A stretch of 26,437 nucleotides of DNA, taken from the IMG/VR virus record IMGVR_UViG_3300042887_000392, positions 1 through 26,437 of that record; one strand, given 5' to 3'. The stretch is from a virus. Its lineage: Duplodnaviria; Caudoviricetes. Under the pieces are notes generated by a model, which had not been told where the DNA came from, did not search any database, and saw only the letters and a program-made list of their open reading frames with translations. Every line of letters starts with the position of its first letter. Position 1 is the stretch's first letter. The position numbers and the translations under genes were made by a program. This document shows positions 4,537 to 26,437 of the stretch, in pieces.

Positions 4537-5517
4537 ATGGCTACTTATAAAGGTATAAATGGTTTTGCAGTTCAATCAGTTGCATCAGATCCATCTCCAT
4601 TAGACGAAGGACAAGTTTGGTATAACAATGCTACTTATGCTTTTAAACTAGCGGCAGTTACAACTGCTGGAACTTGGGCAACAGGTGGAAATTTAAATAC
4701 AGCAAGATGGACTGGACAAGGTTCTAATGTAGGTACACAAACTGCTGCATTATATAATGGTGGATCATCACCTGGAAATACAAATGTTACAGAATTATAC
4801 GATGGAACTTCATGGACAAATTCAACAAATGCTCCTGCTAATGTAAGAGATGGATCATCTTTAGGTGTACAAACTGCTGCATTAGTTTTAGGTGGAAATG
4901 GTCCACCAAATGTAGCATCAGCTAATGTTTTATCATTTAATGGATCTGCTTGGACATCTGCTCCTAGTTTAACTGGTACTATGGTTTCTCAAATGAGTGT
5001 AGGAATTCAAACTGCTGGTTTAGCTTTTGGAGGAAGATCACAAACTGCACCAGTAACTGGATCACAAAATTATAATGGTTCATCTTGGACTAATGGACCT
5101 TCTATGGTTAATTCACATTATAGTGCAGGAGCTGCAGGAGTTCAAACTGCTGCTTTAGCTATATCTGGAGGTCAATTTCCACCAGATGCTGCAACATCTA
5201 CAGTAGATTCTTATAATGGAAGTGCTTGGACTAGTATTACTGCTGTAAACACAGGTAGAAATAATACATCTGGTTGTGGAACACAAACAAGTGCTTTACT
5301 TTTTGGAGGAGGTCCAGCTTCTACTGCAACAGAATTATGGAATGGAACTTCTTGGACAACTACAGGAAGTTTATCTACAGGAAGACAGCTACTAGGTGGA
5401 ACAGGTCTTACATCAGCAGGTCTTGCTATGGGTGGAGAACTTGGAGGAGCATCTTCAGCAACTGAAGAATTCACAGGTCCAGGAGCCCCAGTAACTAGAA
5501 CGATAACAACTTCGTAA
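4537..5517 (+). CDS. Kelch-like six-bladed beta-propeller protein 1 (putative receptor-binding protein)
   Basis: 326 aa. Six G-x-QTAAL-xx-GG...TE-x-Y/W-NG-x-x-WT repeats, N-terminal SDP....GQVWYN module, C-terminal TEEFTG...TITTS. Confidence 0.8.
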   Translation: MATYKGINGFAVQSVASDPSPLDEGQVWYNNATYAFKLAAVTTAGTWATGGNLNTARWTGQGSNVGTQTAALYNGGSSPGNTNVTELYDGTSWTNSTNAPANVRDGSSLGVQTAALVLGGNGPPNVASANVLSFNGSAWTSAPSLTGTMVSQMSVGIQTAGLAFGGRSQTAPVTGSQNYNGSSWTNGPSMVNSHYSAGAAGVQTAALAISGGQFPPDAATSTVDSYNGSAWTSITAVNTGRNNTSGCGTQTSALLFGGGPASTATELWNGTSWTTTGSLSTGRQLLGGTGLTSAGLAMGGELGGASSATEEFTGPGAPVTRTITTS

Positions 5518-5564
5518 TATACAATGATTATGAAAAATGGTATAAATATAAATTAATAAGGAGG
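5518..5564 (+). promoter_or_regulatory. Putative sigma70 promoter plus strong Shine-Dalgarno
   Basis: TATACA (5518-5523), 17 bp ending TGG, TATAAA (5541-5546); AAGGAGG at 5558-5564 before ATG 5569. Confidence 0.5.
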
Positions 5565-5568
5565 AAAC

Positions 5569-5862
5569 ATGGCATATAAATACTGTGTAGCAGAATGTTG
5601 GGGAAAAGGATTTATCACACATGATGATTCATCTAAATTCCAAGTTTCTGGATTCCCAGGTAATGTTTGGCAAATACCAGCAAACAGCCAAGATGCAAAT
5701 CTTTGGGTTAATAAAGTAGCTGGAATTTGGAAAACAAAAGCAGAAGCACAAGCTATAGTTGATGTAGAAGTTACAGCGGCTCAAGCAGCGTGGGATGCTT
5801 TACCTGATGATCAGAAAACAAATTTAAGTAGACAAAGACCAACTGCTATCATTTTAGAATAA
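5569..5862 (+). CDS. Hypothetical protein between propeller genes (possible fiber adaptor/chaperone)
   Basis: 97 aa with a strong SD. WGKGFITH...GFPGNVW motif and C-terminal helix ending RP..I.L. Function inferred from position only. Confidence 0.55.
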   Translation: MAYKYCVAECWGKGFITHDDSSKFQVSGFPGNVWQIPANSQDANLWVNKVAGIWKTKAEAQAIVDVEVTAAQAAWDALPDDQKTNLSRQRPTAIILE

Positions 5863-5869
5863 AATTTTT

Positions 5870-6841
5870 ATGGCAACGTATTACGGAACATATGGACAAA
5901 AAGTCCAGTACCTAGCGTCCGATCCATCTGATCCACAGGTTGGTCAGGTGTGGTATAATTCTACGTCTGCGACTTTGAAGGTGAGACAATTAGTTACAAC
6001 CAATGCTTGGGCGAGCGGAGGGAATTTAAATACAAGTGGTGCATACGGAGCAGCAGTAGGTGATGCATCAGCAGGATTAAGAATGGGTAATTATCCTGGT
6101 TCTGAGACGGTAACAGAATCTTACAATGGAACTTCATGGACATCAGTTACTTCTTTAAATACTGCAAGAGTTTATAACGGTGCTGCAGGAATTCAAACAG
6201 CAGCTATAACATTTGGTGGTGGTCCTGGAGGAACACCTACAACAAGTACAGAATCTTGGAATGGCTCTAGTTGGACAACGGTTAATTCAATGAATACTTC
6301 TAGAACAGCTCCAGCAACAGAGGTTGGTACACAGACAGCTGCATTGGTATCTGGTGGAGAGACTCCTGCTTTAACAACAGCAACAGAATCATGGAATGGA
6401 ACAAGTTGGACAACACTTCCAGCTACAATGAATACAGCAAGAAGTTTTGGTGGTTCAGGTGGAACTCAAACAGCTGCAATATCTTTTGGTGGATCTACTC
6501 CTTCAAAAACAACAGCTACAGAATTATATAACGGTACAAGTTGGACAAATTCATCTGCAATACCGTTTGCTAGAGATCAAATGGGATCTGGTGGAATACA
6601 AACTGCAGTTCTAGGTTATGGAGGAAGAAATGCTGCAAATTCAATACAAAATGGAACAATTTCATGGAATGGTTCTGCTTGGTCAAATCTTTCTAATATG
6701 GGTACTGGAAGATATGGAATTATGGGTGCAGGAACTCAAGCATCTTCTTTAGCAGCAGGTGGTTATTCTGGTTCATATGGAGCTCTTACAGAAGAATGGA
6801 CAGGAATAGTAGCAACAACCAAAACAGTAACGGTATCATAA
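5870..6841 (+). CDS. Kelch-like six-bladed beta-propeller protein 2
   Basis: 323 aa, same architecture as 4537..5517 (MATY.G..G..VQ..ASDP...GQVWYN; six repeats; TEEWTG..TVTVS). Confidence 0.8.
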   Translation: MATYYGTYGQKVQYLASDPSDPQVGQVWYNSTSATLKVRQLVTTNAWASGGNLNTSGAYGAAVGDASAGLRMGNYPGSETVTESYNGTSWTSVTSLNTARVYNGAAGIQTAAITFGGGPGGTPTTSTESWNGSSWTTVNSMNTSRTAPATEVGTQTAALVSGGETPALTTATESWNGTSWTTLPATMNTARSFGGSGGTQTAAISFGGSTPSKTTATELYNGTSWTNSSAIPFARDQMGSGGIQTAVLGYGGRNAANSIQNGTISWNGSAWSNLSNMGTGRYGIMGAGTQASSLAAGGYSGSYGALTEEWTGIVATTKTVTVS

Positions 6842-7821
6842 TGGCACAATACACAGGAATACAAGGACAGAATATTTTAATAGTAAGCTCGGATCCAGCA
6901 AATCCGACTGAAGGTCAGATTTGGTATAATTCAACAAGCAATCTTTTGAAAGGTTATCAATTTGCAACTGTTAATTCTTTTGCTACTGGTGGAACAATGG
7001 GAACAGCAAGATATGGTTTAGCAGCAGCAGGAACACAAACAGCGACTGTTGCATTTGGAGGTGGATCACCTTACACTGGAGGAGCTACAGAATTATACAA
7101 TGGAACATCTTGGACTTCTAATCCAACTTCAATGTCTCCAGGTACATATGTACTAGCAGGTGCAGGTACTCAAACTGCAGCATTAGCTTTTGGTGGAAAA
7201 ACAGGACCTGGTGCTCAAAGTAGTCAAGCTCAAAAATTTAATGGTTCAACTTGGTCACCAACGGGAAGTTTAGGTAATGCAAGATATACTATATCTGGAG
7301 CAGGACTACAAACAGCGGCTTTAGCTTTTGGTGGTGTAAAAACCCCAGGAGAACAAGGTCAATCAGCTACAGAATCTTTTGACGGAACTTCTTGGACAAC
7401 GGTTAATTCAATGAATACTGCAAGAGGAAATTCTGGTGGTTGTGGAACTCAAACAGCTGCTTTAGTTGTAGCTGGAACAACTTTTCCATCTAGTGTAGCT
7501 AATAATGCTGTTGAAACTTGGAATGGAACTTCTTGGACTTCAGTAACTAATTATCCTATATCTAAAGGATTTTTGGCAAGTTTTGGAACACAAACTTCTT
7601 CCATTACTTGTGGTGGATTACCTGTAGTCGCAACTACTAATTTATGGAATGGAACAGCATGGACTGCAAATCCAACAGGATTAAATACAGGAAGAGGACA
7701 ACAATCTGCTGCAGGTACAACAACAGCTGGATTAGTTGCTGGTGGATCACCTCCTAATAGTGGATTAACAGAGGAATGGACTGGCCAAGCATTACAAACA
7801 AGAACAATAACCACTTCTTAA
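6841..7821 (+). CDS. Kelch-like six-bladed beta-propeller protein 3
   Basis: Start corrected from 6796 to 6841 because MAQYTGIQGQ aligns with the N-termini of both paralogs and gives a TAATG overlap. 326 aa, six repeats, ends TEEWTG...TRTITTS. Confidence 0.8.
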   Translation: MAQYTGIQGQNILIVSSDPANPTEGQIWYNSTSNLLKGYQFATVNSFATGGTMGTARYGLAAAGTQTATVAFGGGSPYTGGATELYNGTSWTSNPTSMSPGTYVLAGAGTQTAALAFGGKTGPGAQSSQAQKFNGSTWSPTGSLGNARYTISGAGLQTAALAFGGVKTPGEQGQSATESFDGTSWTTVNSMNTARGNSGGCGTQTAALVVAGTTFPSSVANNAVETWNGTSWTSVTNYPISKGFLASFGTQTSSITCGGLPVVATTNLWNGTAWTANPTGLNTGRGQQSAAGTTTAGLVAGGSPPNSGLTEEWTGQALQTRTITTS

Positions 7822-7860: not shown

Positions 7861-8535
7861 ATGACAGAGAAGAGAGATATAAAAGAGCTTATACAACAAG
7901 AAGAAACACACCTTAATAATCTACTTGAACCAAATGATTTAAAATCATTTAAGGGAATGGTGGATGAACTTCGAGATACTTGGACTAAAAAACAAATATT
8001 TAGAACTGAAACAGAAGCTAGAATTTCAGTATTACAAGATAATCGTTATCCAAATAATGCTTCTAAATACTGGCAATGTGTTAGAGAACAAAGTGTATTT
8101 CTTGAAAATTTAATGTCCTTATCTTTTGATTACAGACGTAATGAAGCTAAAATTAAATGGCTTACTAAAAAAGTAGAAACTGAAACAGATGAATATAAAT
8201 TAGAAAATTATAAAATAGATTTAGATGAAAAGATTTATTCTAAAGCTAATATGGAAGCCGTTGCAAAAGATAGAATGAGAGAAATTAATATGTGGTCTAA
8301 ATTAAAGTTAGAATTTAATGATGGTACATTTAATGATAAAAATGTAAATGAACATCAATTAGAAACATATCATCAAGTATATTTAAACAAAGCTAAAACA
8401 TTAACTTCAGGATCATCTCAACCAGAAGTATTTAATGTGGTGGGTCAATTAGAAACTATTGAAAGAGTTAAGAAATCAGGTGAATTAAAATACGATAAGA
8501 AAGAATCTATTACTTATGGAAAGCAAAACTCATAA
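7861..8535 (+). CDS. Conserved phage coiled-coil hypothetical protein
   Basis: 224 aa, Lys/Glu-rich helical. FRTETE.R.SVL.D..YP..ASKYWQCVREQ and KDRMREI..W motifs; no catalytic motif recognised. Confidence 0.55.
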   Translation: MTEKRDIKELIQQEETHLNNLLEPNDLKSFKGMVDELRDTWTKKQIFRTETEARISVLQDNRYPNNASKYWQCVREQSVFLENLMSLSFDYRRNEAKIKWLTKKVETETDEYKLENYKIDLDEKIYSKANMEAVAKDRMREINMWSKLKLEFNDGTFNDKNVNEHQLETYHQVYLNKAKTLTSGSSQPEVFNVVGQLETIERVKKSGELKYDKKESITYGKQNS

Positions 8536-9307
8536 GAAGATCTTCTTCTTATTAGCTCTTCCAAGATCAGGTAACACTTTATTTGGTTCAATCATGAATC
8601 AAAATCCAGATATCGCAGTAACTGCTAATTCTATTACATTAGAAATAATGAAAGATGTATTTCTACTTAAACAAACTGATGTGTTTCAAAATTACCCAGA
8701 TCATAAATCATTAGATAACGTATTGTCTTCCGTCTACAACACTTATTATAAAGATTGGAATTATAAGTATATCATTGATCGTGGTCCTGTAATGACACCA
8801 GGTAATTTAATGTTAATGAAACAACATTTAGGTCAACCTATAAAGTGCATAGTTATTTGGAGAGATCTATTAGATGTTCTTGCATCATATATTAAATGGT
8901 TTGAAACAGAACCTTCTGCATTTCCTAATAAATATGGCAAGAAAACAATAGAGGAAAAACTTTGGATGCTGATGAATGTAGATGGTGCAATTGCTAAAGA
9001 TTTAATAGCAATACAAAATGCATTAAAACCAGAACATAAATATATGTGTCATTTTCTTAAATATGATGAATTAGTAAATGATACGGAAAATCAAATTAAC
9101 AAGATATATGACTTTTTAGAAATACCTAGATTTAATCATAACTTAAAATCCTTGAATCAATTTAAAGTTAATGGTATAGGTTATGACGATAAAGTGGTTG
9201 GAAATAGAATGCATACTATTAGAGAAGAGATTAGAAAGGAATCAAATCCTTACCGAGCAATGATACCTGAAAGTATTATTAAAGCGTATGGACATATTGT
9301 ATTATGA
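8516..9307 (+). CDS. PAPS-dependent sulfotransferase family protein
   Basis: 263 aa. 5'-PSB loop LPRSGNTL...NQNP, 3'-PB RD..D.LAS, and KYDELV......KIYDFL motif. Confidence 0.85.
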   Translation: MESKTHKKIFFLLALPRSGNTLFGSIMNQNPDIAVTANSITLEIMKDVFLLKQTDVFQNYPDHKSLDNVLSSVYNTYYKDWNYKYIIDRGPVMTPGNLMLMKQHLGQPIKCIVIWRDLLDVLASYIKWFETEPSAFPNKYGKKTIEEKLWMLMNVDGAIAKDLIAIQNALKPEHKYMCHFLKYDELVNDTENQINKIYDFLEIPRFNHNLKSLNQFKVNGIGYDDKVVGNRMHTIREEIRKESNPYRAMIPESIIKAYGHIVL

Positions 9308-9693
9308 AAATTTTAATATTTGGATTACCAGGATCTGGCAAATCTACATTTGCAAAGAAACTAGTTGAGAATAAAAAAATACCTCACTTTAATGCTGATG
9401 AGATTAGAAAGTTATTTGAAGATTGGGATTTTACAGAAGATGGTCGTAAACGACAAGCTAATCGTATGATGACTATGTGTGATCTTGCAGTTAATCATGT
9501 TGTTGTAGACTTTGTTTGTCCATTTGAATCTTATAGATCTTTTTATGATATGAAGATTTGGATGAACACCATTAATAAAGGAAGATTTGAAGATACGAAT
9601 AAAGTTTTTGAAAAACCTAAAAAAGTAGATTTTGAAATAACTGATTTTAATTACGATAACATAATAAAGGAGATACATGATAGACTACTCTAA
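9304..9693 (+). CDS. Adenylylsulfate (APS) kinase-like P-loop kinase, short form
   Basis: 129 aa. GLPGSGKS Walker A, NADEIR....DWDF...GR..Q..R, DFVCP....R and FEKP match CysC-like kinases, but the protein is shorter than cellular CysC. Confidence 0.75.
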   Translation: MKILIFGLPGSGKSTFAKKLVENKKIPHFNADEIRKLFEDWDFTEDGRKRQANRMMTMCDLAVNHVVVDFVCPFESYRSFYDMKIWMNTINKGRFEDTNKVFEKPKKVDFEITDFNYDNIIKEIHDRLL

Positions 9694-10024
9694 ACCCACA
9701 GCACAGATGCTTGGACGTTGGCAGCCATTCCATGATGGACATTTAGCTTTATTTAAAGAGATATTAAAGAAGACTGGTCAAGTTTGTATAATGGTTAGAG
9801 ATCAAGTTCCTACAAAAGATAATCCATTTAAATTTGATGAAATAAAACAACGTATAGAAGAAAAACTTAAAGACTATATTGGTAAATTTGAAGTTGTAAA
9901 AGTTCCTAATATTACCAATATATGTTATGGTAGAGGTGTTGGTTACAAGATTGAAGAGATTGTATTGCCAAAAGAAATACAAGAAATATCGGCTACTAAA
10001 ATTAGAAAAGAGATGGGACTATGA
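9677..10024 (+). CDS. HxGH nucleotidyltransferase (cytidyltransferase-like), possible minimal ATP sulfurylase
   Basis: 115 aa, AAGGAG at 9667-9672. GRWQPFHDGH and C-terminal ISATKIR motifs. Confidence 0.75.
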   Translation: MIDYSKPTAQMLGRWQPFHDGHLALFKEILKKTGQVCIMVRDQVPTKDNPFKFDEIKQRIEEKLKDYIGKFEVVKVPNITNICYGRGVGYKIEEIVLPKEIQEISATKIRKEMGL

Positions 10025-10671
10025 ACTTTAATTTTACATTTCTAGGACAATCTATCCTACGATATGAAACTCCTTTAGATATATTTCATGCAGTTAATCA
10101 ATCATATGAACAAAAATTTAATACATTAGAACCAGCAAATAAACAATTAGTTGGAAAGATTAAAGATGAACATTCTTTATTTTATGATGGAGAAGATGAA
10201 TCTAAAATGAAAAGACATAATATGTTACCTAAAAATGTTTTAGATTGGTTTATGGAAATGTTTCATCATTATTTAGAATTTAATCATATTAGACAATATG
10301 AAACACATTTAAATTCAATCTGGGTTAATGAAATGAAAGCACATGAATATAATCCTGTACACGTGCACCAGGGCAATTTGTTTACTGGTCTATCTTCAGT
10401 TATGATTTTAAAGTTACCAAATACTTATGGTGTAGAGTATTCTGCAGAACAAGCTCCACAAAATGGTAAACTACAAATATTAGGTGCAAGCAATGGTCAA
10501 TTTGCTAAAGTTGATTATGAACCACCAATGAAGTTAAGAGACTTTTATATATTTCCTTATGATATGAGACATTGTGTATATCCATTTAATGGAACAAATG
10601 ACACTAGACGAACATTAGCAGCTAACTGCGATGTATTATATAACCCAATCATCAATAGAGGAGCACAATGA
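10021..10671 (+). CDS. 2OG-Fe(II) oxygenase superfamily protein (HxH type)
   Basis: 216 aa. WVN......YNPVHVH...LSSV, FP....HCVYPF, RRTLAAN. Confidence 0.8.
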   Translation: MNFNFTFLGQSILRYETPLDIFHAVNQSYEQKFNTLEPANKQLVGKIKDEHSLFYDGEDESKMKRHNMLPKNVLDWFMEMFHHYLEFNHIRQYETHLNSIWVNEMKAHEYNPVHVHQGNLFTGLSSVMILKLPNTYGVEYSAEQAPQNGKLQILGASNGQFAKVDYEPPMKLRDFYIFPYDMRHCVYPFNGTNDTRRTLAANCDVLYNPIINRGAQ

Positions 10672-11243
10672 TAACAGAACCACGTTGGAAGTCGTTGATT
10701 GTTGAAACAACTAGTCCAATATTTACACCAGAACAATGTCAGTTAATTATAAATGCAGGTAGATCTGAACCCGTTGAAAATGGTCAAGTAGGTGGAGGAC
10801 AAGGTGGTACAGTAGATACAAAGGTTAGAACTTCACACATTAGTTGGATACCTTTTAATAAAATGCCTGAAATGTATAAAACATTAGAAACTATTATGAG
10901 AAAAACAAATGGTAATCATTTTGGTTTTGAAGGAATGCAAATAACCGAGCCCGCACAGTACACAGAATATCCTGCAGGTGGATTTTATGATTGGCATATA
11001 GATTCAGATGTTAATTGTGTAAATGAACCTCCTGTGCGAAAAATATCTATGACCTGTCTATTATCACATGAATCAGAATTTGAAGGTGGTGGACTTGAAC
11101 TTATGTCAGATGGAAAGATTGCAAGACCTAAACAAGGACAAGCTATATTCTTTGCATCATACATTAGACACCGTGTAATACCTATTACAAAAGGAGTTAG
11201 AAAATCACTTGTGATGTGGTTTGGGGGTCCATCTTTTAAATGA
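10668..11243 (+). CDS. 2OG-Fe(II) oxygenase, prolyl 4-hydroxylase/PKHD-like
   Basis: 191 aa. YDWHID, RKIS, FEGG.L, HRV.P.TKG.RKSLV.W..GP. Confidence 0.88.
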   Translation: MITEPRWKSLIVETTSPIFTPEQCQLIINAGRSEPVENGQVGGGQGGTVDTKVRTSHISWIPFNKMPEMYKTLETIMRKTNGNHFGFEGMQITEPAQYTEYPAGGFYDWHIDSDVNCVNEPPVRKISMTCLLSHESEFEGGGLELMSDGKIARPKQGQAIFFASYIRHRVIPITKGVRKSLVMWFGGPSFK

Positions 11244-11830
11244 ATAGAGAATTATTTTTTGCAACACCTGTTTATGTTAAGGACGTTGGATCTGAAGAAT
11301 TTAACAATAGATTAAAACAAAATATTATTAACTGGTCGAATAAAGATAAAGGTATTCAAAGAACTAATACAAATGGATGGCATTCAACTGATGATATGCA
11401 TACTAAACCTGAATACAAAGAATTAGTTGATTTATTATTTGAAGCACAAAAACATATTTACAAAGAAGAACTATTAGACAATGAACCATTTTTAGGTAGT
11501 ATGTGGGCAAACATCAATCCACCACACGGATATAATAAAGCTCATACTCATCCAAATTGTTTATGGTCTGGAGTTTATTATGTAAAGACTCCAAAAAATT
11601 GTGGACACTTAACAATAATGGACCCTAAATCAGTTGCAGCAATGACGTATCCAAGAAGAAAAGAAGGAGAACTTCCATCTTATTTATGGAGAGATGTTCA
11701 TTTTGAACCAGTTGCTGGACGACTTATAATGTTTCCAGCATGGCTTAATCATTGTGTTGATCCTAATAAATCTAATGATATAAGAATATCAGTATCTTTT
11801 AATTTTTTACAGAGAGGAATGTTTGTATGA
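11240..11830 (+). CDS. 2OG-Fe(II) oxygenase, TIGR02466-like (HxH type)
   Basis: 196 aa. LFFATP start, WANIN....YN..HTHPN...SGVYY, FPAWL.H.V..N....RISVSFN. Confidence 0.85.
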   Translation: MNRELFFATPVYVKDVGSEEFNNRLKQNIINWSNKDKGIQRTNTNGWHSTDDMHTKPEYKELVDLLFEAQKHIYKEELLDNEPFLGSMWANINPPHGYNKAHTHPNCLWSGVYYVKTPKNCGHLTIMDPKSVAAMTYPRRKEGELPSYLWRDVHFEPVAGRLIMFPAWLNHCVDPNKSNDIRISVSFNFLQRGMFV

Positions 11831-12483
11831 GTTTTGCACAAAATAAATATCAAGTAATCAAAAAAGCAGTTTCATATGAACTTGCTAACTTTGTATTTAA
11901 TTATTTTTTACTTAAAAGAGATGCAGTTAATTATTTATACTCAAATAATCTAGTAGCTGAAAATGGTATGTTTGGTACTTGGAAAGATGCACAGGTTCCA
12001 AATGTTTATTCTCATTATGCAGATTTTGTTATGGAAACATTACTTATGAAAGTAATGCCTATAATGAAAAAAGAAACTAATTTAGATTTAATACCTACTT
12101 ATTCTTATGCAAGAATTTATGAAAAAGGATCTATCTTAAAAAGACATAAAGATAGACCATCTTGTGAGATATCTACAACATTAAATTTAGGCGGAGATTC
12201 TTGGCCAATATTTATTGATCCAACAGGATCTAATAACGTAATAGATGAATATAAAAACATAATGAAACCTAATGCTCCAGCAGGTATAGAAGTTAATTTA
12301 GAACCAGGAGATATGTTAGTTTATTCTGGATGTGAATTAGAACATTGGAGAGAAGAATTTAAAGGAAATGTTTGTGGTCAAGTTTTCTTGCATTATAACC
12401 ATATAAATGGACAGTTTGCACAATCCAATTTATATGATAAAAGACCTCTATTAGGATTACCATCATTCACTAAAGTAGTGTAA
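11827..12483 (+). CDS. 2OG-Fe(II) oxygenase-like protein (phage HxDRPSCE family)
   Basis: 218 aa. PTYSYARIY..G..L.RHKDRPSCEIS.T, GD...Y.GC..EHWRE, QVFLHY. Confidence 0.75.
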   Translation: MSFAQNKYQVIKKAVSYELANFVFNYFLLKRDAVNYLYSNNLVAENGMFGTWKDAQVPNVYSHYADFVMETLLMKVMPIMKKETNLDLIPTYSYARIYEKGSILKRHKDRPSCEISTTLNLGGDSWPIFIDPTGSNNVIDEYKNIMKPNAPAGIEVNLEPGDMLVYSGCELEHWREEFKGNVCGQVFLHYNHINGQFAQSNLYDKRPLLGLPSFTKVV

Positions 12484-16456: not shown

Positions 16457-16637
16457 TCTACCCAAGATAGAATGTCAGACAGTAGAAATTATTAAAAGTA
16501 AGAAAACCGGAAAGACTTATAATAATATGGAAGAATTTCTAAAAGAAAATAAAATTGAAGATTTACAAAAAGATTTATCTATTACTATTACAAACAAAGG
16601 ATTAGATTTAATACAGAAAGTAATGAATCAAAAATGA
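16449..16637 (+). CDS. Hypothetical protein
   Basis: 62 aa, overlaps both neighbours. KKTGKTY motif. Confidence 0.55.
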   Translation: MDNLPKIECQTVEIIKSKKTGKTYNNMEEFLKENKIEDLQKDLSITITNKGLDLIQKVMNQK

Positions 16638-17569
16638 ATCCTAGAGGCGGAACAGAATTACAAGTAGAATTACTTGAAAAATTTGTAGATAAAAAATTAT
16701 TAGATCAAGTACAAATAACAACATCTGTACCTGAAAAAATACCATTACATCCAAATAAACCAAACATACTTTGGCAACAAAATTCATATGACCAAGGTAA
16801 TTTAGCCCCATGGTTTAAAAATAAAGACAATCATAATAAATATGATTGGTATGTATTTAATTCACATTGGTGTTATGAAAAATTTAGAATGATGTTTGAT
16901 ATACCAACATATAAATCATTAGTTATTAAAAATGGAATAGATAAGATAAAACCTAGAGATTTAAGTTATAAAAAAGGAAAACCAATTAAATTAATCTATA
17001 CATCAACTCCATGGAGAGGATTGAATGTATTACTTGCTGCAATGCAATTAGTTCAAAATCCATTGATACATTTAGATGTTTATTCTTCAACTCAAGTATA
17101 CGGTGATCAATTTAAATCAGCAAATGATGAACAATTTAAAGGTTTATATGAACAGGCTAAAGCTTTACCTAATGTAACTTACATTGGATATAAGCCAAAT
17201 GAATATATAAAAGAAAATTTAAAAAATTATCATATGTTTGTTTACCCTAATATTTGGGAAGAAACATTTTGTATATCAGCATTAGAAGCCATGGCCGCAG
17301 GACTTTATTGTATCACAACAGACTATGGTGCTTTATATGAAACTTGTGCAGAGTTTTCAGTTTATGTTCCATATGAAAAAAATTATATAAAACTTGCTCA
17401 AACATTTGCTAAAGTAATTGATGCTGCATCTGCTCAATTAAACGAACAAAATGTAAAAGATCACTTAAAATTTCAAATAGATTATACAAATAAATATTAT
17501 TCATGGGAATCAAAGGCAATGGTTTGGAATAGATTTTTAGAAGGAGTTTTAAATGCAAGACGCAAGTAA
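16634..17569 (+). CDS. Glycosyltransferase, GT-B fold (GT4-like)
   Basis: 311 aa. GGTE, YTSTPWRGL..L, YP..WEETFCISALEAMAAG (E-x7-E), GAL.E. Confidence 0.88.
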   Translation: MNPRGGTELQVELLEKFVDKKLLDQVQITTSVPEKIPLHPNKPNILWQQNSYDQGNLAPWFKNKDNHNKYDWYVFNSHWCYEKFRMMFDIPTYKSLVIKNGIDKIKPRDLSYKKGKPIKLIYTSTPWRGLNVLLAAMQLVQNPLIHLDVYSSTQVYGDQFKSANDEQFKGLYEQAKALPNVTYIGYKPNEYIKENLKNYHMFVYPNIWEETFCISALEAMAAGLYCITTDYGALYETCAEFSVYVPYEKNYIKLAQTFAKVIDAASAQLNEQNVKDHLKFQIDYTNKYYSWESKAMVWNRFLEGVLNARRK

Positions 17570-18449
17570 ACCTATTTGGTTTAAAAAAATTAAAGATACA
17601 GATACTATTGATTTAAAACAGCATGCAAAAACTATTAATATAGGAACACCTTTATATAAAATATTTGTAGCAACACCAGTTCATAGTGAATGTTCAATTC
17701 ATTACACACAAGCATTATTAAAGTTTCAACAACAATGTATGATGAACAATATCATGGTATCTTTTTCACTTCTTAAATCATCATTAGTTACACAAGGAAG
17801 AAATTTATGTGTGGCTGGTTTTTTAAATGATCCTTCCAATTATACTCATTTATTATTCATAGATTCTGATATTGATTTTAGTTTTGAAACCATAATCAAA
17901 ATGTTAAAATTAGATAAAGAACTAATAGCAGCTCCTTATCCAATGAAGTATATTAACTGGGATCAAGTATGGGATAGAGTTCAATCTAATAAAATTAAAA
18001 CTAAAGAAGAATTGATGAGATGTGGATTCATATATCCAATAAAAATGGATAACATGATTGATCCTAAAAAGAATCAAATTACAGTTGTGAATGGTGTTAT
18101 GGAAGTATCCCATGCTCCAACTGGATGTATGTTAATTAAAAGACAAGTATTTGATAAAATGATTAAAGCGTATCCAGAAGATAGAATCGAGCAACATACA
18201 ATTGTAAATGGAGAAGCTAAAATTACTGAAAACATGTACAACTTTTTTGATACAATTCATGAATCAGATAGTAAAAAATATTATGGAGAAGACTTTGGAT
18301 TCTGTAAAAAATGGACAAAAATAGGTGGAAAATGTTATTGTTATGTTGAAGATCCTATTACTCATATTGGTGAATATCAATATTCAGGTAGTTTAAAAGA
18401 TAATTTAGAATTCGTTAATACCGTTGACGATTCAAAGAAAAACAAGTAA
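17553..18449 (+). CDS. Glycosyltransferase, GT-A fold (GT2-like)
   Basis: 298 aa, AAGGAG at 17541-17546. VATP, SLV..GRN, LLFIDSD (DxD), TGCMLIKR.VF, EDFGFC..W, H.G. Confidence 0.82.
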   Translation: MQDASKPIWFKKIKDTDTIDLKQHAKTINIGTPLYKIFVATPVHSECSIHYTQALLKFQQQCMMNNIMVSFSLLKSSLVTQGRNLCVAGFLNDPSNYTHLLFIDSDIDFSFETIIKMLKLDKELIAAPYPMKYINWDQVWDRVQSNKIKTKEELMRCGFIYPIKMDNMIDPKKNQITVVNGVMEVSHAPTGCMLIKRQVFDKMIKAYPEDRIEQHTIVNGEAKITENMYNFFDTIHESDSKKYYGEDFGFCKKWTKIGGKCYCYVEDPITHIGEYQYSGSLKDNLEFVNTVDDSKKNK

Positions 18450-18502: not shown

Positions 18503-20377
18503 ATGGATTCTATAGCTACGGCACGAGATTTTTTTATAAACCAACAAGGAATGAGCCCTGACCAAGCTGACATGATAGTTAGTCAAGGATTGCAGGCTTA
18601 TAATCAACAAACACAACCTAGAAGCATGATGCAAATGGCATCAGGTGGTATTGCAAGACTTGGTTATCAAATGGGTGGAAGCCCAGTAGGTGTTCAAACA
18701 ATGCCTATGGATTATGGTCAATCATTACAAGTACCTCAACTACAACAATCTATGTTTACTCCAACGGGAAGTGCAACATCTAGTCCGTTATTAAACTATG
18801 GGCAAACAGGAATTGGAAAAGCAGGTGGAACACCTTTAACAATGCGTGGTGGTGGTATTGCAAGATTAGGTTATCAAGAAGGTGGAATGACAATGACACA
18901 ATTTGGAGCTCCACAAGAAGAACCTATATTTCCAAGATTAGAAACTTTAAGTGAAAACTTAGGACAAGCAGAAGAAAAATTAGGAACACCATCTAATAAT
19001 CAATTTGGTATTTCTCCTATGACTTCTGCATTTACAGGGCAACCTAGATTTGGTTACGAATCTGGTGGTGTGACTGTGCCATCACAAGGATCTGAAATGT
19101 CACAACTTGGACAAATGGATCCAGCACAAGCTGTAGAAGTAATTACTAAATTATTAATTGAGAATGGAGTTCCTCCAGAACAAGCACAACAATTAGCATT
19201 ACAAATTATACAAATATTTGCACAAGGTGGAGAACCCGCGGTTGAAGAATTTGCAAATCAATTAGAACAACAAGAAACAGAAGCAATGGCTTCTGGTGGT
19301 ATTGCAGGATATGGTTATAGACAAGGATATTTTGTAGGTGGTATTGCTAAAGCAGTTGGAAGTGTATTTAAAGGAGCAGCAAAGGCAGTTTCAGGGGTTG
19401 TTAAAGGAGTAGCTAATGCAGTTAAATCAGTTGTTAAAAGTGATATAGGTAAATTAGCTTTACTTGCAGGTGGTGCATATTTAATGATGAATCCTGGAAT
19501 ACTTTCAGGATTAGGTGCAGGAACTGCAGCAGGAACAACAGCTGCTCAAACAGCGGCATTAACAGAAGCAGGATTAGGTGGATTAGGTGCTACATCTTTA
19601 ACTGCAGGAACAGGTTCTTTAGTATTACCAACAGCGGCTTCTGTAGGAGCAGCATTGCCTGCAACGGCTGGAGGATTAACAGCAGCGGGTGGATCACTTG
19701 CTCTACCTGCAGCAACATCAATAACAGCGGATGCATTAGCAGCTGCAACACCTAGTTTTTTTGAAACTGCTAAATCTGTAGCAATGGATCCATCTTTTTC
19801 AGGAATTAAAGCATTAGGACAACAAGGATTATCTAGTATTGCAAATTTAGGTTCAGAAGCACTAGATTATGCAAGTAAAAATAAATTAAGTACGGCTCTT
19901 ACACTTACAAATTTAGCTTCACTAGGGGCTCAATTAGGTATGCCAAGAAATGAAGGTGAAGATGACATGTCTTATGAAAAAAGATTAAAAGAAGCTCAAG
20001 GTTATTTAACTAATTATGGAAGAAATTTAAAAATAACTAATCCTTATTTCTATCAGAGAGAAGGTGCAGTAAATCCATTTGCTCCAACTATGGCAGCTAA
20101 TGGTGGTATAATGGGATATGCAAAAGGTGGATCAATGGTTCCTCCTGCTAGACAAATTGAAGGTGGTATTATAGAATTAGATGCAAGAAAAACAGGTGGA
20201 TATATTCCATATGGTAAAAAGGAACGAGTAGATGACGTTCCTGCAATGCTTGCAAAAGATGAATTCGTATTTACTTCACGTGCAGTCAAGGCTGCAGGTG
20301 GTGGAAGCGCGAGAAAAGGAGCTGCTAAAATGTATGCACTTATGAAACAATTAGAATCAAAAGGAGCTAGAGCGTAA
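18503..20377 (+). CDS. Internal virion / DNA ejection protein with repeated xxGG motifs and tape-measure-like C-terminal domain
   Basis: 624 aa, Gly/Ala/Gln/Met-rich. Five MA.GGI..GY..GG-type units, amphipathic then hydrophobic Ala/Gly segments, C-terminal GG.IP...DDVPAML..DEFVFT..AV. Confidence 0.7.
   Translation: MDSIATARDFFINQQGMSPDQADMIVSQGLQAYNQQTQPRSMMQMASGGIARLGYQMGGSPVGVQTMPMDYGQSLQVPQLQQSMFTPTGSATSSPLLNYGQTGIGKAGGTPLTMRGGGIARLGYQEGGMTMTQFGAPQEEPIFPRLETLSENLGQAEEKLGTPSNNQFGISPMTSAFTGQPRFGYESGGVTVPSQGSEMSQLGQMDPAQAVEVITKLLIENGVPPEQAQQLALQIIQIFAQGGEPAVEEFANQLEQQETEAMASGGIAGYGYRQGYFVGGIAKAVGSVFKGAAKAVSGVVKGVANAVKSVVKSDIGKLALLAGGAYLMMNPGILSGLGAGTAAGTTAAQTAALTEAGLGGLGATSLTAGTGSLVLPTAASVGAALPATAGGLTAAGGSLALPAATSITADALAAATPSFFETAKSVAMDPSFSGIKALGQQGLSSIANLGSEALDYASKNKLSTALTLTNLASLGAQLGMPRNEGEDDMSYEKRLKEAQGYLTNYGRNLKITNPYFYQREGAVNPFAPTMAANGGIMGYAKGGSMVPPARQIEGGIIELDARKTGGYIPYGKKERVDDVPAMLAKDEFVFTSRAVKAAGGGSARKGAAKMYALMKQLESKGARA
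18635..20131 (+). repeat. Dispersed peptide repeat (M/Y/F)-x-x-G-G, five units
   Basis: Units at 18635-18679, 18842-18886, 19046-19069, 19286-19342 and 20090-20131. The first two share ggtggtattgcaagaYtWggttatcaa at 18644-18670 and 18851-18877. Confidence 0.85.
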
Positions 20378-21210
20378 TGGCTGAAATTACACAAACACAA
20401 ACATTACCAGCACCATTTATAGAAGCTTTAGGTAAAACCTATGGGGAACAATTAACATCAGCTATTGGTGGTTTAAAAGATTTAGATGTATCTAAAATTT
20501 ATGGACCACAATTTGTAGCTCCACAAGGAGCTCTTGCTGAACAGGCACAACAATTGGCTGGTGGACTTGGAGCATATCAACCTTATTTACAAGCAGCACA
20601 GGCTGCAACTGGACCTACTGCATATCAACAGTATATGTCTCCATATCAACAAGATGTTATTAACACAACTTTAAGACAATATGATATTCAATCACAAAAA
20701 GGTCTACCAGCACTAGCAGCACAAGCAATAGCAGCAGGTGCATATGGAGGAGGACGTGAAGGTGTACAAAGAGCAGAATACCAAACACAATCAGATTTAA
20801 ATAGAGCTTTACTTGAAGCACAATTAAGACAACAAGGATTTGGTCAAGCTCAAAGTTTAGCAACTAATCAATTTAATCAACAAATGCAATTAGCTGGTCA
20901 ACAACAAGGATTATTAGGACAACAAATATCTGGGCTTTCTGCATTAGGTGCACAACAACAAGCGCAACAACAAGCTCAATTAGAAGCACAAAAACAATTA
21001 GAATATCAAAAAATTTATCAACCTTTACAAACTGCTCAACAATTTGGTCAAGGTATTACAGGTCTTATTGCTGGATATCCTCAACAAACTCAACAGCAAA
21101 TTGCTCCTTCTCCTTCAGCTTTACAAACAGGTTTAGGTGCTGCTTCAACGTTGGCAGGTATATATAAAACATTATTCCCAAGTCCGTTGCAAATACAACA
21201 GGTAAGATAA
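20377..21210 (+). CDS. Gln-rich DNA ejection / pilot protein
   Basis: 277 aa, TAATG-coupled. YMSPYQQDVI, GAYGG.R.G...AE, L...GF.QAQ, Gln-rich coiled coil, C-terminal GLG...LAG hydrophobic segment. Confidence 0.7.
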   Translation: MAEITQTQTLPAPFIEALGKTYGEQLTSAIGGLKDLDVSKIYGPQFVAPQGALAEQAQQLAGGLGAYQPYLQAAQAATGPTAYQQYMSPYQQDVINTTLRQYDIQSQKGLPALAAQAIAAGAYGGGREGVQRAEYQTQSDLNRALLEAQLRQQGFGQAQSLATNQFNQQMQLAGQQQGLLGQQISGLSALGAQQQAQQQAQLEAQKQLEYQKIYQPLQTAQQFGQGITGLIAGYPQQTQQQIAPSPSALQTGLGAASTLAGIYKTLFPSPLQIQQVR

Positions 21211-21215
21211 ATTAA

Positions 21216-22223
21216 ATGTCTAGAATATTAAGAAGACCAATGTTTAGAGGTGGGTCAATAAGTAGTGAAGGTATTATGTCTGTACCTAGAAAAAAATATG
21301 AAGAAGGAACTGATGCGGGTGGAGTACAAGATTTTGATATTTCTAGTTATGGATATCCTTATGATCAAGGCGATGGAGGTAGTGATTACACTGCTTTAGC
21401 AGGTAAATCAGAAGATTTAAATATTAACCCTTCTTTGATTAAAAAAGAAACTGCTCAAATAAAAGATAAAGCAAAAATATATAAAGCTTTAGGACAAGAA
21501 GTAGAAGAAGGATCTTATGGAGATTTACTACTTAAAGAATATTTGGGTAATAGACCAGATCCAATGGGTAAATTTTTAATTAATTTTGGTTTAAATTATA
21601 TGTCAGCTAGACCAAGAGGTGGTAAATTTGGAGCATTTGCAACAGCTGCGGATGCTGCTAAAAAACCTACAGAACAATTATATGCAGACATAGACACTGA
21701 TAGACTATTAAAATTAAAATTAATGGGTGCTCTTTCTAAGAGTGATGGTAAAGGAGCATTTGAAAAAAAGATAGATGCTATTTGGAAATCAGAACAAAAT
21801 AAACCTGAAGGTAAAAGAAAATTTAATTCAAGAGAAGAAGTTGTAGATACTGTACTTAGTACAGAACAATATACAAAACAAGAATCACCTGAAGTAAGAA
21901 TTGAAAAAAGAACAGCTGAAATTTTAAAAGAACCAGGTGGAGCTGCTACTAGAGAATCTGCAAGAAATAAAGCTGAGTTTGAATTATATTCAATTAATAA
22001 AATACCAAAAACTGAAAAAGAAAAAATAAATTTTAACAATCCATATTTTATTGAAGTAGGTCAAATTATTCAAAAACCTGGTTCTACAGATTTTAAATTA
22101 GAAGGAGTAACAGAAGGAAATTTAAAACAATTTAAAACTAATAGAAACTACGTAGATCCAAATACAAGATCCGTTTATACATATCTAGGACCTAATACAT
22201 TTAGATTTGTATCAAAATATTAA
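21216..22223 (+). CDS. Putative internal virion / ejection protein
   Basis: 335 aa. N-terminal IL.RPMFRGG...GI motif, central FL..FGL...S...GG amphipathic segment, charged C-terminal half. Lies within the ejection block. Confidence 0.55.
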   Translation: MSRILRRPMFRGGSISSEGIMSVPRKKYEEGTDAGGVQDFDISSYGYPYDQGDGGSDYTALAGKSEDLNINPSLIKKETAQIKDKAKIYKALGQEVEEGSYGDLLLKEYLGNRPDPMGKFLINFGLNYMSARPRGGKFGAFATAADAAKKPTEQLYADIDTDRLLKLKLMGALSKSDGKGAFEKKIDAIWKSEQNKPEGKRKFNSREEVVDTVLSTEQYTKQESPEVRIEKRTAEILKEPGGAATRESARNKAEFELYSINKIPKTEKEKINFNNPYFIEVGQIIQKPGSTDFKLEGVTEGNLKQFKTNRNYVDPNTRSVYTYLGPNTFRFVSKY

Positions 22224-22231
22224 AGGTTCAT

Positions 22232-25200
22232 ATGTCAAACGAAAACTTTGATAGCATTAAAGAATTAGAAAATGCAGAAGATAATCAAGTATTTTCTAAA
22301 GTAGATAAACCAATTCCAAACGTATCTGATTTCAGTGATTATGTAACTCCACAAGAAGTTACAGATGGTTTAACTTACAAAGCTCCTAAACCTACGGTCG
22401 ATCGTAAAGAATTAACAATTGAAGAAAGACTTGCACAAGGTCCTAAATATAAAGATAAATCTAAATTAGAAACAATTTTATTTGGACCAGATATAGAATT
22501 ACAAGGTGACTTTGGAATACCGGCACAAAGAGTGGTTGAAAGATTATATAGAAAAGGAGCGGGTAAAGAAGTAGAGCCTGTAGATAATTTTTCAACAACT
22601 GAATCTATGGTTGCTGGATTAATAGATGGAAATATAAAATTAGTTAAATTCCCAGTTAATATTGCATCAGAAGTAATAGACTTTGCAAGAGGGTCAGGAG
22701 TTGAGCCAGATAAAAGTGCAGTTGCAAAGGTCGAAAAATATTTTACAGATAGTATACTTGGAAAAATTGCAACTGAAGCAGAAGACATTGCATTTACCGA
22801 TGCCGCAGGAAAATTAACTTCTGCAGCTACTCAAATTCTTGGACTTTCAAAACCAACACAAGCATTAAGTGATTGGGGATTTAAAACTGCAAATAGATAT
22901 TTTGAAGCAGCAAAACTTGGTAAAGTTGCGACCAATAGTAAAAGTTTAGAACGAGCAACAAAAGAAGCTTTAAGATTAAATCAATTAAGTGGTAAACAAA
23001 AGTTTGCATCTTTTATGATTGGTGGTGGGCTTGGTATGGCTGCAGTTGCTGATCCAGAAGAATTTGGAACATTATCTGAATTACTAGAAGGAACAAGATT
23101 TGAAAATACATTAGGTGTACTTGGATTAGACCGTGAAAAAAAACAAGATCCACAAGATGAAGCGGCAAGAAGACTTTGGAACAGAACTAAATTAGGAATA
23201 GAACAAGGATTAATAACATGGCCTATTTTATTTGTAGGTGGAAAAATTGGTAAAATGATAAATAAACAATCTAAAGATGTTTATGCAAGTAACGAAGATT
23301 TAGATAGATGGATTGAAAAATATTTTATGACTCCATTTAAATCTAGAGGTGTAAAGCCCGATGAATTATTTGAGGAAATGCAAAGGGTAAAAGGTAAAAT
23401 ATCTTCAGGACAAGTTGCTTCAATAGATATAATAAAAGATATAGACGCAACTCTTCTTAAAATTGCAAAAGAATCTGGTATTAATAAAGGAACTCCTGAG
23501 TTAAAAAGATTAATAGGAAGAATGGATGAACTACTTGTTACAGGATCTGATATTGTTAAAGGTAAAGAATTTTTATTTAAAGGCTTTGATCCTAAAAAAT
23601 TATCTGAATTTAAAAAATTTACATCAGCAGAACTTGGATTAGGTGCAGATCAAATAGAAAGATTGGTTGCAGAATTAGCAAAAGCTAGGAATATATTTAA
23701 TACATATAAGAATACATTTTTTGCAGGAGGTAATATAAATGCTGCGGCTAATGATTTTGCTAAAATTATGTCTGAAAGAATGCAAAACATTTGGACATCA
23801 GAATATAGAATATTTGAAGATAATTTTAAAATATTTCCGTGGCTAAGATATAAGCCAATTCAATCTAATTTAGATGATGCTAAACAAGTATTAGGACGTT
23901 ATGCAGCTCAAAATGGAGCAAGATTAACAGATCAACAATTAGATGAACAATTACAAACAATATTAAAAGAAGTAAGAAGGGATCCATTAACAGGATCTCC
24001 AGAATTTCCTTTATACAATCAAAGTATTTTAGCTGAAGATGGAATACAATATATAAACATGGCTAAAAGTTTTGAAGGTGGAAAATTTAAGCCAAGTGAT
24101 TTATTTAAAAAAGAAGAAGATGTTAGAAAATTTCAAAGATTGTTTGGACAAAAAAGAGATTTAAGAAATACAATTGCAAGTACTATGTCTGATCTTGCAA
24201 CTCTTACTTCAAAAGATACATTTTATAATAATATTTTAAAACTTAATGATGATTTAATAAAACAAAAAAGACCTGGAATATTTTATGATAGTCCAACAGC
24301 AGCAAGAAGTGGTTTAAGAAATGTTATAGATGGAGATAATATTATAACTACAAAAGGTGGGTTAAATATAAAATCTCCTATTGGTGAAGATTTTTATACT
24401 AATCCTTTAAATGGTAAGTATACATCTAAACCTTATGCAGATGCTTTAAATTTTTCTGAAAAAGTATTGTTTGATGAAGTAGCAAGAAATACTTGGTATC
24501 AACATTTAGTTCTTATTCCAAAAGGATTAACACAAGTTTCAAAAACAGTATTAGGTCCTTTTACACATACAAGAAACTTTATAACTCAAGGACAATTTGT
24601 TTTAGCAAATGGTAATTTATTTAAAGATCCTAAAAAAATAGCGGAAAATTTTAAACGAGCTTTTAATACTGTTCAACCGCAACTTATTTATAGAAATTTA
24701 CCTAAAGATCAAGCTATGGCAAGATTTTTAATTGAAGAAGGAGTTATGAGTTCGAGTGCTATTGCTGCGGATATATCAGGTTTAATAGAAGATATGTCTA
24801 AAACAGGAGATGTTTATTCAAGGCTATTTGGAAAATTTGGTAATAAAATGAAAGATCTTTATAAATTTGCTTTTGATTTATATGTTGCAGAAGATGATAT
24901 TTGGAAAGTTTATAGTACTTTTTCTGAATTTGATAATTATAAAAATCTTTACACTAATGCTGTTAAATCAGGAAAACTTAAAAACATGCCAACTGATTTA
25001 GAAATAATGAAACAAGCAACAAAAATTGTAAGAGATACTTTACCAAACTATGCATACGTTGGTGATTTTATTAAATCTATGAGAAGAACTCCACTTGGAA
25101 ACTTTATGTCTTGGCCAGCATCTGTAATAAGATCTGGATTAAAAACATTTGAACTTGCACAAAAAGAAATAAAAGATCCTATTTTACATTCACAAGGTGT

Positions 25201-26437
25201 AAAAAGAATGATGACTTTTGGAACAGTTACTGCTGCTTCATTACCTGCAATTCAATCAATGGTTCACGGAGTTTATGGTGTTACAAATAAAATGGTAGCT
25301 GCGGCTAGGTTTTTTGTTCCTGATTTTTCTAGGAACTCAACTCTTATATTAACACAAGATGCAGACGGTAATTTTAAATATATAGATGGAAGTGGTTCAT
25401 TTGTTTATGATACATTAACTTCTCCTTTCCAATCTACAATAGCTGAAATCAATATATCAACTCCATATGATCCAAAAGCTCCTATTATACCTGCAGCATA
25501 TAAAGGATTAATTAGAGGAATTGGAAAATTAATGGAACCATTTATTAGTGAATCTATTTGGTTAGAAACATTTAACAATTTAGTTGTTAGAAATGGTGTG
25601 ACTCCTGATGGAAGAAGATTATGGAATCCACAAATGGATGCGCCTGATAAAGTAATAGAAGCTTTAAAATATTTTATAGAACAAACTGCGCCAGGATCTT
25701 ACAAACAATCAGTTCGTTTAAAAAAATCAATTACCGGTGAGCCTGGAGCAAGAGGTGAAAAATATGAAATTAATGATGAAATAGCAGGATTCTATGGTTT
25801 AAGACAAATTAAATTAGAACCAATTAAAAAAATGGACTTTAAATTAAATGAATATCAAAAAGCAGTCGCTGATGCTCGTAAAATATTTACAGTTCCAGCA
25901 CAAAAAGGTGGAGAGTTATCAGGAGATGAGTTTATAGAAAATTTTTATTATGCCAATAGAAAAAAATATGAAGCTATGAATAATTTAAAAATTACAAATG
26001 AAATGGCTGAAATATTAAATGTAACTAAAAATCAATTAGCTAGAGCATATGATGATAGAAATTTATTAAAAGATTATAAATATTTAGAATCAAATAACTT
26101 TAGACCTTATACTATAAGTAAACCTTTAGTGCAAAAAACAGAAGAAATATACAAAGATTTATCTACAAATTTTGATAACATTGAAATAACAAAAACATTA
26201 AATAATCAAACTTTAAATAGTTTATCAAGAATGATTAGAGACATGTCTAGAGTTCCTTTAGGAGAAAATTTAAATAATTATATAAACATTGAAGATTATT
26301 TAATTGGAGACAAGCCATCTCTACTAGGACCGAGAAGCGAGGGGCCAGTTAATGTTCAACCATTACCACCACAACCTCAACCTAATCCACAAGTGGTATC
26401 TAAACCTCCAATACCTATGAATCAACAATCTGGCTTG
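22232..26437 (+). CDS. Large internal virion / ejection protein, 3'-truncated (at least 1402 aa)
   Basis: Not in the ORF track because it has no stop in the window. ATG 22232 gives MSNENFDSIKELENAED. The stretches I translated stay open in one frame (KTVLGPFTHTRNF, YVAEDDIWK, TLPNYAYV...RRTPLGNFMSWPA) through to KPPIPMNQQSGL at the window end. I did not translate every codon. Confidence 0.85.
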   Translation, partial: MSNENFDSIKELENAEDNQVFSKVDKPIPNVSDFSDYVTPQEVTDGLTYKAPKPTVDRKELTIEERLAQGPKYKDKSKLETILFGPDIELQGDFGIPAQRVVERLYRKGAGKEVEPVDNFSTTESMVAGLIDGNIKLVKFPVNIASEVIDFARGSGVEPDKSAVAKVEKYFTDSILGKIATEAEDIAFTDAAGKLTSAATQILGLSKPTQALSDWGFKTANRYFEAAKLGKVATNSKSLERATKEALRLNQLSGKQKFASFMIGGGLGMAAVADPEEFGTLSELLEGTRFENTLGVLGLDREKKQDPQDEAARRLWNRTKLGIEQGLITWPILFVGGKIGKMINKQSKDVYASNEDLDRWIEKYFMTPFKSRGVKPDELFEEMQRVKGKISSGQVASIDIIKDIDATLLKIAKESGINKGTPELKRLIGRMDELLVTGSDIVKGKEFLFKGFDPKKLSEFKKFTSAELGLGADQIERLVAELAKARNIFNTYKNTFFAGGNINAAANDFAKIMSERMQNIWTSEYRIFEDNFKIFPWLRYKPIQSNLDDAKQVLGRYAAQNGARLTDQQLDEQLQTILKEVRRDPLTGSPEFPLYNQSILAEDGIQYINMAKSFEGGKFKPSDLFKKEEDVRKFQRLFGQKRDLRNTIASTMSDLATLTSKDTFYNNILKLNDDLIKQKRPGIFYDSPTAARSGLRNVIDGDNIITTKGGLNIKSPIGEDFYTNPLNGKYTSKPYADALNFSEKVLFDEVARNTWYQHLVLIPKGLTQVSKTVLGPFTHTRNFITQGQFVLANGNLFKDPKKIAENFKRAFNTVQPQLIYRNLPKDQAMARFLIEEGVMSSSAIAADISGLIEDMSKTGDVYSRLFGKFGNKMKDLYKFAFDLYVAEDDIWKVYSTFSEFDNYKNLYTNAVKSGKLKNMPTDLEIMKQATKIVRDTLPNYAYVGDFIKSMRRTPLGNFMSWPASVIRSGLKTFELAQKEIKDPILHSQGVKRMMTFGTVTAASLPAIQSMVHGVYGVTNKMVAAARFFVPDFSRNSTLILTQDADGNFKYIDGSGSFVYDTLTSPFQSTIAEINISTPYDPKAPIIPAAYKGLIRGIGKLMEPFISESIWLETFNNLVVRNGVTPDGRRLWNPQMDAPDKVIEALKYFIEQTAPGSYKQSVRLKKSITGEPGARGEKYEINDEIAGFYGLRQIKLEPIKKMDFKLNEYQKAVADARKIFTVPAQKGGELSGDEFIENFYYANRKKYEAMNNLKITNEMAEILNVTKNQLARAYDDRNLLKDYKYLESNNFRPYTISKPLVQKTEEIYKDLSTNFDNIEITKTLNNQTLNSLSRMIRDMSRVPLGENLNNYINIEDYLIGDKPSLLGPRSEGPVNVQPLPPQPQPNPQVVSKPPIPMNQQSGL

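Follow-up and report, generated by a model that had tools for sequence, protein, structure and literature searches.

The window analysed here is a stretch of 26,437 nucleotides of viral DNA. It carries a structural module; tail genes, oxygenases and glycosyltransferases are followed by a cluster of four genes, a predicted ejection cluster on the plus strand. The first gene (18503..20377, +) encodes a protein of 624 aa and is the ortholog of gp82 of HTVC027P. The second (20377..21210, +) matches PHROG 4287, 'DNA ejection protein', with an E value of 5e-7, and the third (21216..22223, +) has at aa 9-13 an N-terminal copy, MFRGG, of the signal described below, without the module that ends the first gene. 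The large fourth gene (22232..26437, +), of more than 1400 aa and open at the window end, occupies the ortholog position of HTVC027P gp85.

HTVC027P is the closest cultured relative and is described as a podovirus (bioRxiv 2019.12.14.876532). When the C-terminal 94 aa of the 624-aa protein were searched against 50,697 phage records, three matched, the best of them being gp82, and the order of the cluster genes is the same in HTVC027P and DSL-LC04. Shared gene order and the PHROG match of the neighbour support the assignment of the locus to a likely ejection cluster. Given this gene position, and the amphipathic and Gly/Ala-rich segments of the protein, we consider it likely, as judged from sequence, to be an ejection (internal virion) protein that is packaged in the head and injected ahead of the DNA. 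The ORF has no match in Pfam or NCBIfam; this result, together with a podovirus as the closest cultured relative, led us to reject an annotation of the whole protein as a tape measure.

Several other features of the window deserve mention. Two glycosyltransferase-like genes (16634-18449) lie directly before the ejection cluster, are kept in HTVC027P and may modify virion proteins. At 4537-7821 there are three tandem paralogs (326, 323 and 341 aa) with WT/WS-rich repeats and a common N-terminal motif, which are probably tail-fibre or propeller-like proteins; a 97-aa gene sits between the first two. Likely auxiliary genes, assigned by reading the sequence only, are found inside the structural module at 8516-12483, namely a sulfotransferase-like, an adenylylsulfate-kinase-like and a cytidylyltransferase-like gene and four 2OG-Fe(II) oxygenase-like ORFs.

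The preliminary description had noted five repeated GG units in the 624-aa protein, and all five were confirmed. Unit 1 (18635..18679, +; aa 45-59) and unit 2 (18842..18886, +; aa 114-128) are double motifs, MASGG...YQMGG and MRGGG...YQEGG, respectively. An optional cassette (18887..19045, +; aa 129-181), the second in the window and present in 28 of 121 close relatives, separates them from unit 3, RFGYESGG (19046..19069, +; aa 182-189). Unit 4, MASGG...YFVGG (19286..19342, +; aa 262-280), is directly followed by a Lys-rich amphipathic helix (19343..19441, +), which has the top hydrophobic moment of the protein, is matched by a comparable element in 80 of the 128 orthologs and is predicted from its sequence to be membrane-active. 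Next come a mildly hydrophobic and highly variable Gly/Ala-rich segment (19442..19942, +), unit 5, MAANGG...YAKGG (20090..20131, +; aa 530-543), and the C-terminal module (20186..20374, +; aa 562-624), which starts with a degenerate motif of its own, RKTGG, and contains the conserved residues D577 and E587. A sixth motif, FAQGG (19217..19231, +; aa 239-243), was absent from the earlier list of units and occurs 111 times among the 120 close relatives listed.

The relaxed pattern [FYM][AQSNRKE]xGG has 8 matches in the ORF, compared to a shuffle mean of 0.59, or 1.26 when the GG pairs are kept, and none of 20,000 shuffles reached at least 8 matches in either test. For the stricter pattern xAxGG there are 7 matches, a number reached by 0 and 11 of 20,000 shuffles in the two tests. 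Among the other 27 proteins of the window, three have one relaxed match each. It is important to point out that the patterns were fixed after the sequence had been seen, and counts in orthologs are therefore a better test than shuffles of the ORF.

For these counts, the 161 module-bearing ORFs from the fetched loci were reduced to 128 non-redundant orthologs by removal of open, short and redundant ones. Upstream of the module, they contain 408 motifs, compared to 163 expected, and for a subfamily further away, of which 65 of 80 members were kept, the count is 201, compared to 111 expected. The number per ortholog ranges from 0 to 9, with 8 of the 128 having no motif upstream of the module, so that the unit number indeed varies while the motif is conserved, as the preliminary description had proposed to check. 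The C-terminal 100 aa matched in 402 of 517 candidates; the best 120 of these 402 belong to separate 90% clusters, yet they are 93-100% identical over this part. In the 89 close relatives with a full start, the median identity is 95% for the last 62 residues and 35% for aa 331-455. Altogether 18 cassette architectures were found among 91 close relatives with a full start, and cassettes are gained or lost whole, at the units, although the segments were cut at motifs and their boundaries are thus partly given by construction. In addition, a Hint domain (PF07591), which is another self-processing element, is found in a few of the long orthologs of this family.

At the DNA level, unit 2 is 72% identical to unit 1 over 43 nt, and units 1, 2 and 4 are mutually 72-77% alike. 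These similarities, along with the gain and loss of cassettes at the units, would fit with the units being flexible Gly linkers or recombination joints that spread by duplication and have no protein reader. We consider this improbable, since the same peptide consensus recurs across unrelated genes and phage orders and at fixed distances from the module, and since the motif is depleted in two neighbouring genes that also contain Gly.

We now turn to the C-terminal module, a strongly conserved stretch of about 62 residues. A search of 1.84 billion clusters at 50% identity gave 3,947 relatives of it at E 0.001. No Pfam or NCBIfam family matches it, and a PDB search with the single sequence gave no match. 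A profile built from the orthologs, on the other hand, matches the Douge tape measure (8ZDO) in two copies with E 1e-4; this part of the protein is reported to have no resolved density in the structure (PMC13033339). The module of a distant ortholog found 928 phage records at E 0.1; of the 60 listed, 53 carry a tape-measure annotation. In profile-profile comparison, the module matches the tape-measure set with 98.1% probability (E 8.8e-14), and lambda gpH with 71% for one subfamily and 87% for the other (39.9% in an initial comparison). Conversely, the tape-measure profile recovers 105 of the 149 domains from the ortholog loci at E <0.001. The profile similarity to the type found at lambda gpH 734-780 covers GG-h-h...D-x-h-P-A-x-L-x-x-G-E-F-V, and RKTGG at the start of the module is in register with FAxGG of the tape-measure copies, with YAKGG 23 residues upstream. 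We conclude from these sequence comparisons that the C-terminal module is homologous to an unnamed module of siphophage tape measures, including lambda gpH. The resemblance to tape-measure C-termini suggested earlier thus holds, and the gpH tail quoted for that suggestion agrees with the actual sequence.

In tape measures, the module occurs together with the motif. A set of 120 long relatives, most of which have tape-measure Pfam domains, contains one to four module copies each, 196 in total. The motif xAxGG is found 12-45 residues upstream of 140 of these copies and downstream of 83, with backgrounds of 9.4% and 13.7%, respectively, from 6,000 random windows. As hand-picked controls, the tape measures of HK97, P2 and Mu and the C-terminal 649 aa of that of TP901-1 show neither a module match nor [FY]AxGG. 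The combination is present in phages of Proteobacteria, Bacteroidota and Actinomycetota hosts. Of the bridging profiles, E and F are linked at 95% (reversed controls at most 1.1%), and for the module subtype linked in this way, 38 of 105 cases are short basic ORFs. These ORFs, ending in the subtype, are 68-151 aa long, and some are almost the module alone. There are also single tape-measure-like proteins, for example an ORF of 1502 aa, with both lambda-related and T5-related module types, each behind xAxGG.

The signal is not confined to proteins that have the module. In the third cluster gene, a leader motif is present in 94 of 104 distinct orthologous sequences, without a module, while the second and fourth genes are depleted of motifs (29 vs 113 expected and 50 vs 96 expected, respectively). 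In HTVC027P, the module was found in gp82 only, among the 67 of 87 genes examined. Five copies of the unit in its long form are present, in gp41, gp42, gp47 and gp82, compared to a shuffle mean of 0.12 (maximum 1 in 300), and the short motif is found in 7 of the 14 proteins of gp41-54, in 2 of the 26 of gp1-40 and in 4 of the 22 of gp55-81. At gp41-gp52 of HTVC027P (21952-31000), the signal is carried by two large genes that lie between terminase and portal, and also by a number of small basic proteins. Since the signal is present in genes without a module, the system is wider than the single self-processing polyprotein that had been proposed for this gene. The simplest reading of the HTVC027P sequence would be one reader and many tags. 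In addition, gp50 and gp52 match PHROGs that also occur within longer proteins, which suggests cassettes that exist both free and fused. No virion proteomics for the HTVC027P group was found in the literature, and a term search of PMC9599517 gave no mention of ejection, protease or tape measure.

This distribution also bears on whether the motif is cut at all. Some motifs in HTVC027P are so close to a protein end (2-11 residues) that cleavage there would have little effect, which counts against cutting. The motifs could instead be docking tags that stay uncut, with a module on the portal (as for the crAss001 gp45 domain) or at the tail tip binding the xAxGG strands and thereby loading and ordering the cargo. 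The motifs at protein ends and on the small basic proteins gp44-gp50, as well as the leader copy in the third gene, are consistent with such a role. The same applies to the upstream motif of the tape measures, which runs directly into the module and may be no more than the strand with which it opens, and to the fact that no catalytic constellation was seen. On the other side stands lambda gpH, which has the module and is cut in that region.

For lambda, the gpH cleavage product gpHC of ca 14 kDa is reported to stay in the particle (PMC12617516). Of the loss of the gpH C-terminus assumed in the preliminary description, the cut is therefore right, but the fragment is retained. The cleavage site and the catalyst were stated in 2025 to be unknown (PMC12617516). 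In the gpH sequence, the module lies between FATGG (733) and YATGG (778), and a cut between F733 and A734 would yield 12.5 kDa, compared to the ca 14 kDa reported.

A further possibility is that the motif is cut by a separate protease, encoded by the phage (lambda gpK would be an example) or by the host, with the module being structural or presenting the substrate. Lambda gpK has peptidase domains. It is reported to be needed for lambda tail assembly (PMC10721106, PMC12617516) and to be absent from the virions (PMC10721106), and the title of a 1973 paper points to host involvement in the T5 cut. Motif and module span, however, phages of hosts from three bacterial phyla, no protease is annotated in the T5 tail region shown, and HTVC027P has no annotated maturation protease, its sole annotated protease being an M15 peptidase (most of its genes are unannotated). 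A separate protease is thus rather unlikely in our view.

In T5, pb2 is reported to be cut after R1127, on the basis of proteomics and intact mass (PMC10038345). This bond is R↓AEGG (the arrow marks the cut), one of only two xAxGG strings in the 1219 aa of pb2. R↓AEGG is the start of a module type present in an estimated ca 12,000 viral stretches, whose profile finds pb2C with 94.5% (E 1.2e-4). The site is disputed, as V1148 was assigned earlier and R1127 is also a trypsin site (PMC11937520). For the tape-measure product of a T5 relative, 121.1 kDa was measured (PMC3326045), which is nearer to the 121.7 kDa computed for R1127 than to the 123.9 kDa for V1148.

The third case is gp45 of crAss001, whose resolved portal-bound piece has A425 of NAFGG as its first residue and stops short of FAYGG. 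It is through residues 425-552 that gp45 binds the portal wing, and a second piece, in the tail barrel 420 Å away, lies between two other motifs (PMC10172136). The protein was modelled as one intact chain, and the main text makes no mention of cleavage; the four peptide regions named there do not span a motif (PMC10172136), but most tryptic peptides that did so would be long. In the gp45 type, the motif precedes the domain core by 23 residues in 27 of 27 relatives. The profiles of the T5-type and crAss-type domains gave no significant match to the module (<5%), the gp45 domain being in register with it in hhalign nonetheless, and bridges from F to crAss and from E or F to T5 showed no link. 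PF25725 was twice the nearest named family in the atlas, with scores of 0.82-0.85 that serve as leads only. Some tape-measure proteins do contain both lambda-type and T5-type modules, preceded in each case by xAxGG. Two other ideas were dropped. Equating the second cluster gene with the C-terminal part of crAss gp45 failed (0.3%), and a bacteriocin double-glycine leader, considered in view of the amphipathic helix that follows YFVGG, is not favoured, as both outside anchors for the register put the boundary before AxGG and not after GG.

The lambda, T5 and crAss001 anchors for cutting are indirect, none of them being decisive. The binding of gp45 to the portal wing fits with docking. Against docking are two points: T5 pb2 is reported to be cut in the same register in which the ordered piece of gp45 starts, and the module and the gp45 domain gave no significant sequence match. 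A docking tag is possible and, by our estimate, nearly as likely as self-processing.

As to the module itself, a 149-row alignment spanning the subfamilies has just two invariant columns, D577 and E587; its rows were partly selected on these residues. In 150 close representatives found without patterns, both are 99-100% conserved, as are many other residues, and nowhere does a Ser, Cys or His reach 99% conservation. A Glu at the place of E587 is the sole residue that recurs, by eye, in the lambda, crAss and T5 types. Two AlphaFold2 models, from alignments of 53 and 134 sequences, have pTM values of 0.45 and 0.43 and are confident only for the C-terminal helices, with low confidence in the N-terminal half. 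No active site was seen in them, nothing above noise was found in the Foldseek PDB, VIA wide and VIA second-look searches, and BFVD returned only unnamed phage proteins. Models this weak allow no claim of a new fold, nor of a distinction from 7QOG.

The reading that we favour, with a probability of roughly 40%, is self-processing by the module at the x-A-x-G-G units. The units would be maturation signals in an ejection precursor that is loaded as one chain. The C-terminal module would read them and probably cut before the Ala, both in its own chain and in other signal-bearing virion proteins, the register x↓AxGG being borrowed from T5 pb2 and crAss001 gp45. Catalysis would be centred on the conserved Glu, E587 here and E755 in lambda gpH, with a water molecule activated by it as the attacking group; because Ala follows the bond, an intein-like nucleophile is unlikely and a Glu-activated water would be required. 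The cuts would serve to free a 25-kDa piece that starts with the amphipathic helix, for crossing the cell envelope, and would also release small optional peptides.

What counts for self-processing is the motif enrichment, the cassettes, the tape-measure homology, the bracketing by xAxGG, the three outside anchors and the lack of an annotated maturation protease in HTVC027P. The assignment is kept tentative by the disputed T5 site, the unlinked T5 and crAss domains, gp45 having been published as intact, and the motifs at protein ends. The motif-free orthologs, the lack of a catalytic Ser, Cys or His and the small size of the module also weigh against it. A bolder version, which we regard as possible but less likely, is that a Glu-dependent autoprotease module of about 60 residues is common to siphophage tape measures (lambda, T5, actinophages), crassvirus cargo and pelagiphage ejection proteins. 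It would cut x↓AxGG in cis and in trans, would be the catalyst of the gpH cleavage at F733↓A734, and would make one ejection gene a swappable array of peptides.

Maturation cuts in tape measures and head cargo were already known. In the literature searched, with thin coverage of subscription papers, no description of the motif or the module was found. New here are the homology to the lambda-type module, tested by sequence profiles, and a cultured relative in which a single module stands beside many tags. The tape measures of long tails and the ejection proteins of short-tailed phages become tied to each other by a shared module and a shared signal. At 50% identity, 3,947 protein clusters have the module, and it occurs in a marine phage group that ranks among the most abundant. 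If it reads and cuts the signal, it would explain the cleavage of lambda gpH, for which a candidate site and residue are now named in the phage that is best equipped for experiments. Whether the signal is cut or only bound, a portable means of loading peptides into virions would be useful to phage biologists.

Among known systems, one close counterpart is lambda gpH, whose homologous module is bracketed by FATGG and YATGG and which is cut nearby and then ejected. However, gpH serves as a tail ruler of the coiled-coil type (PF06791, PF09718) and has two motifs, whereas the present protein belongs to a podovirus, has no tape-measure domain, has six or more motifs and carries the module at its very end. 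T5 pb2 (pb2*, pb2C) is similar in its reported x↓AxGG cut directly before a small Glu-containing module, but that module is of the GE.GxE type without a profile link, and there is one site only, itself disputed. The crAss001 protein C1/gp45 (PF25725; PDB 7QOG) is likewise the first cargo gene after the tail stabilisation gene, with cassettes between xAxGG motifs and a conserved domain bracketed by them; its domain differs in being internal, 128 aa long and without significant sequence similarity, and gp45 is published as uncut. In prohead-protease processing, as reported for SPN3US gp245, a short consensus likewise marks multiple sites in head cargo. T4 gp21 is a further example of such processing of internal proteins. 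In the SPN3US type, a dedicated protease gene acts on another consensus, while the candidate reader here is part of the cargo.
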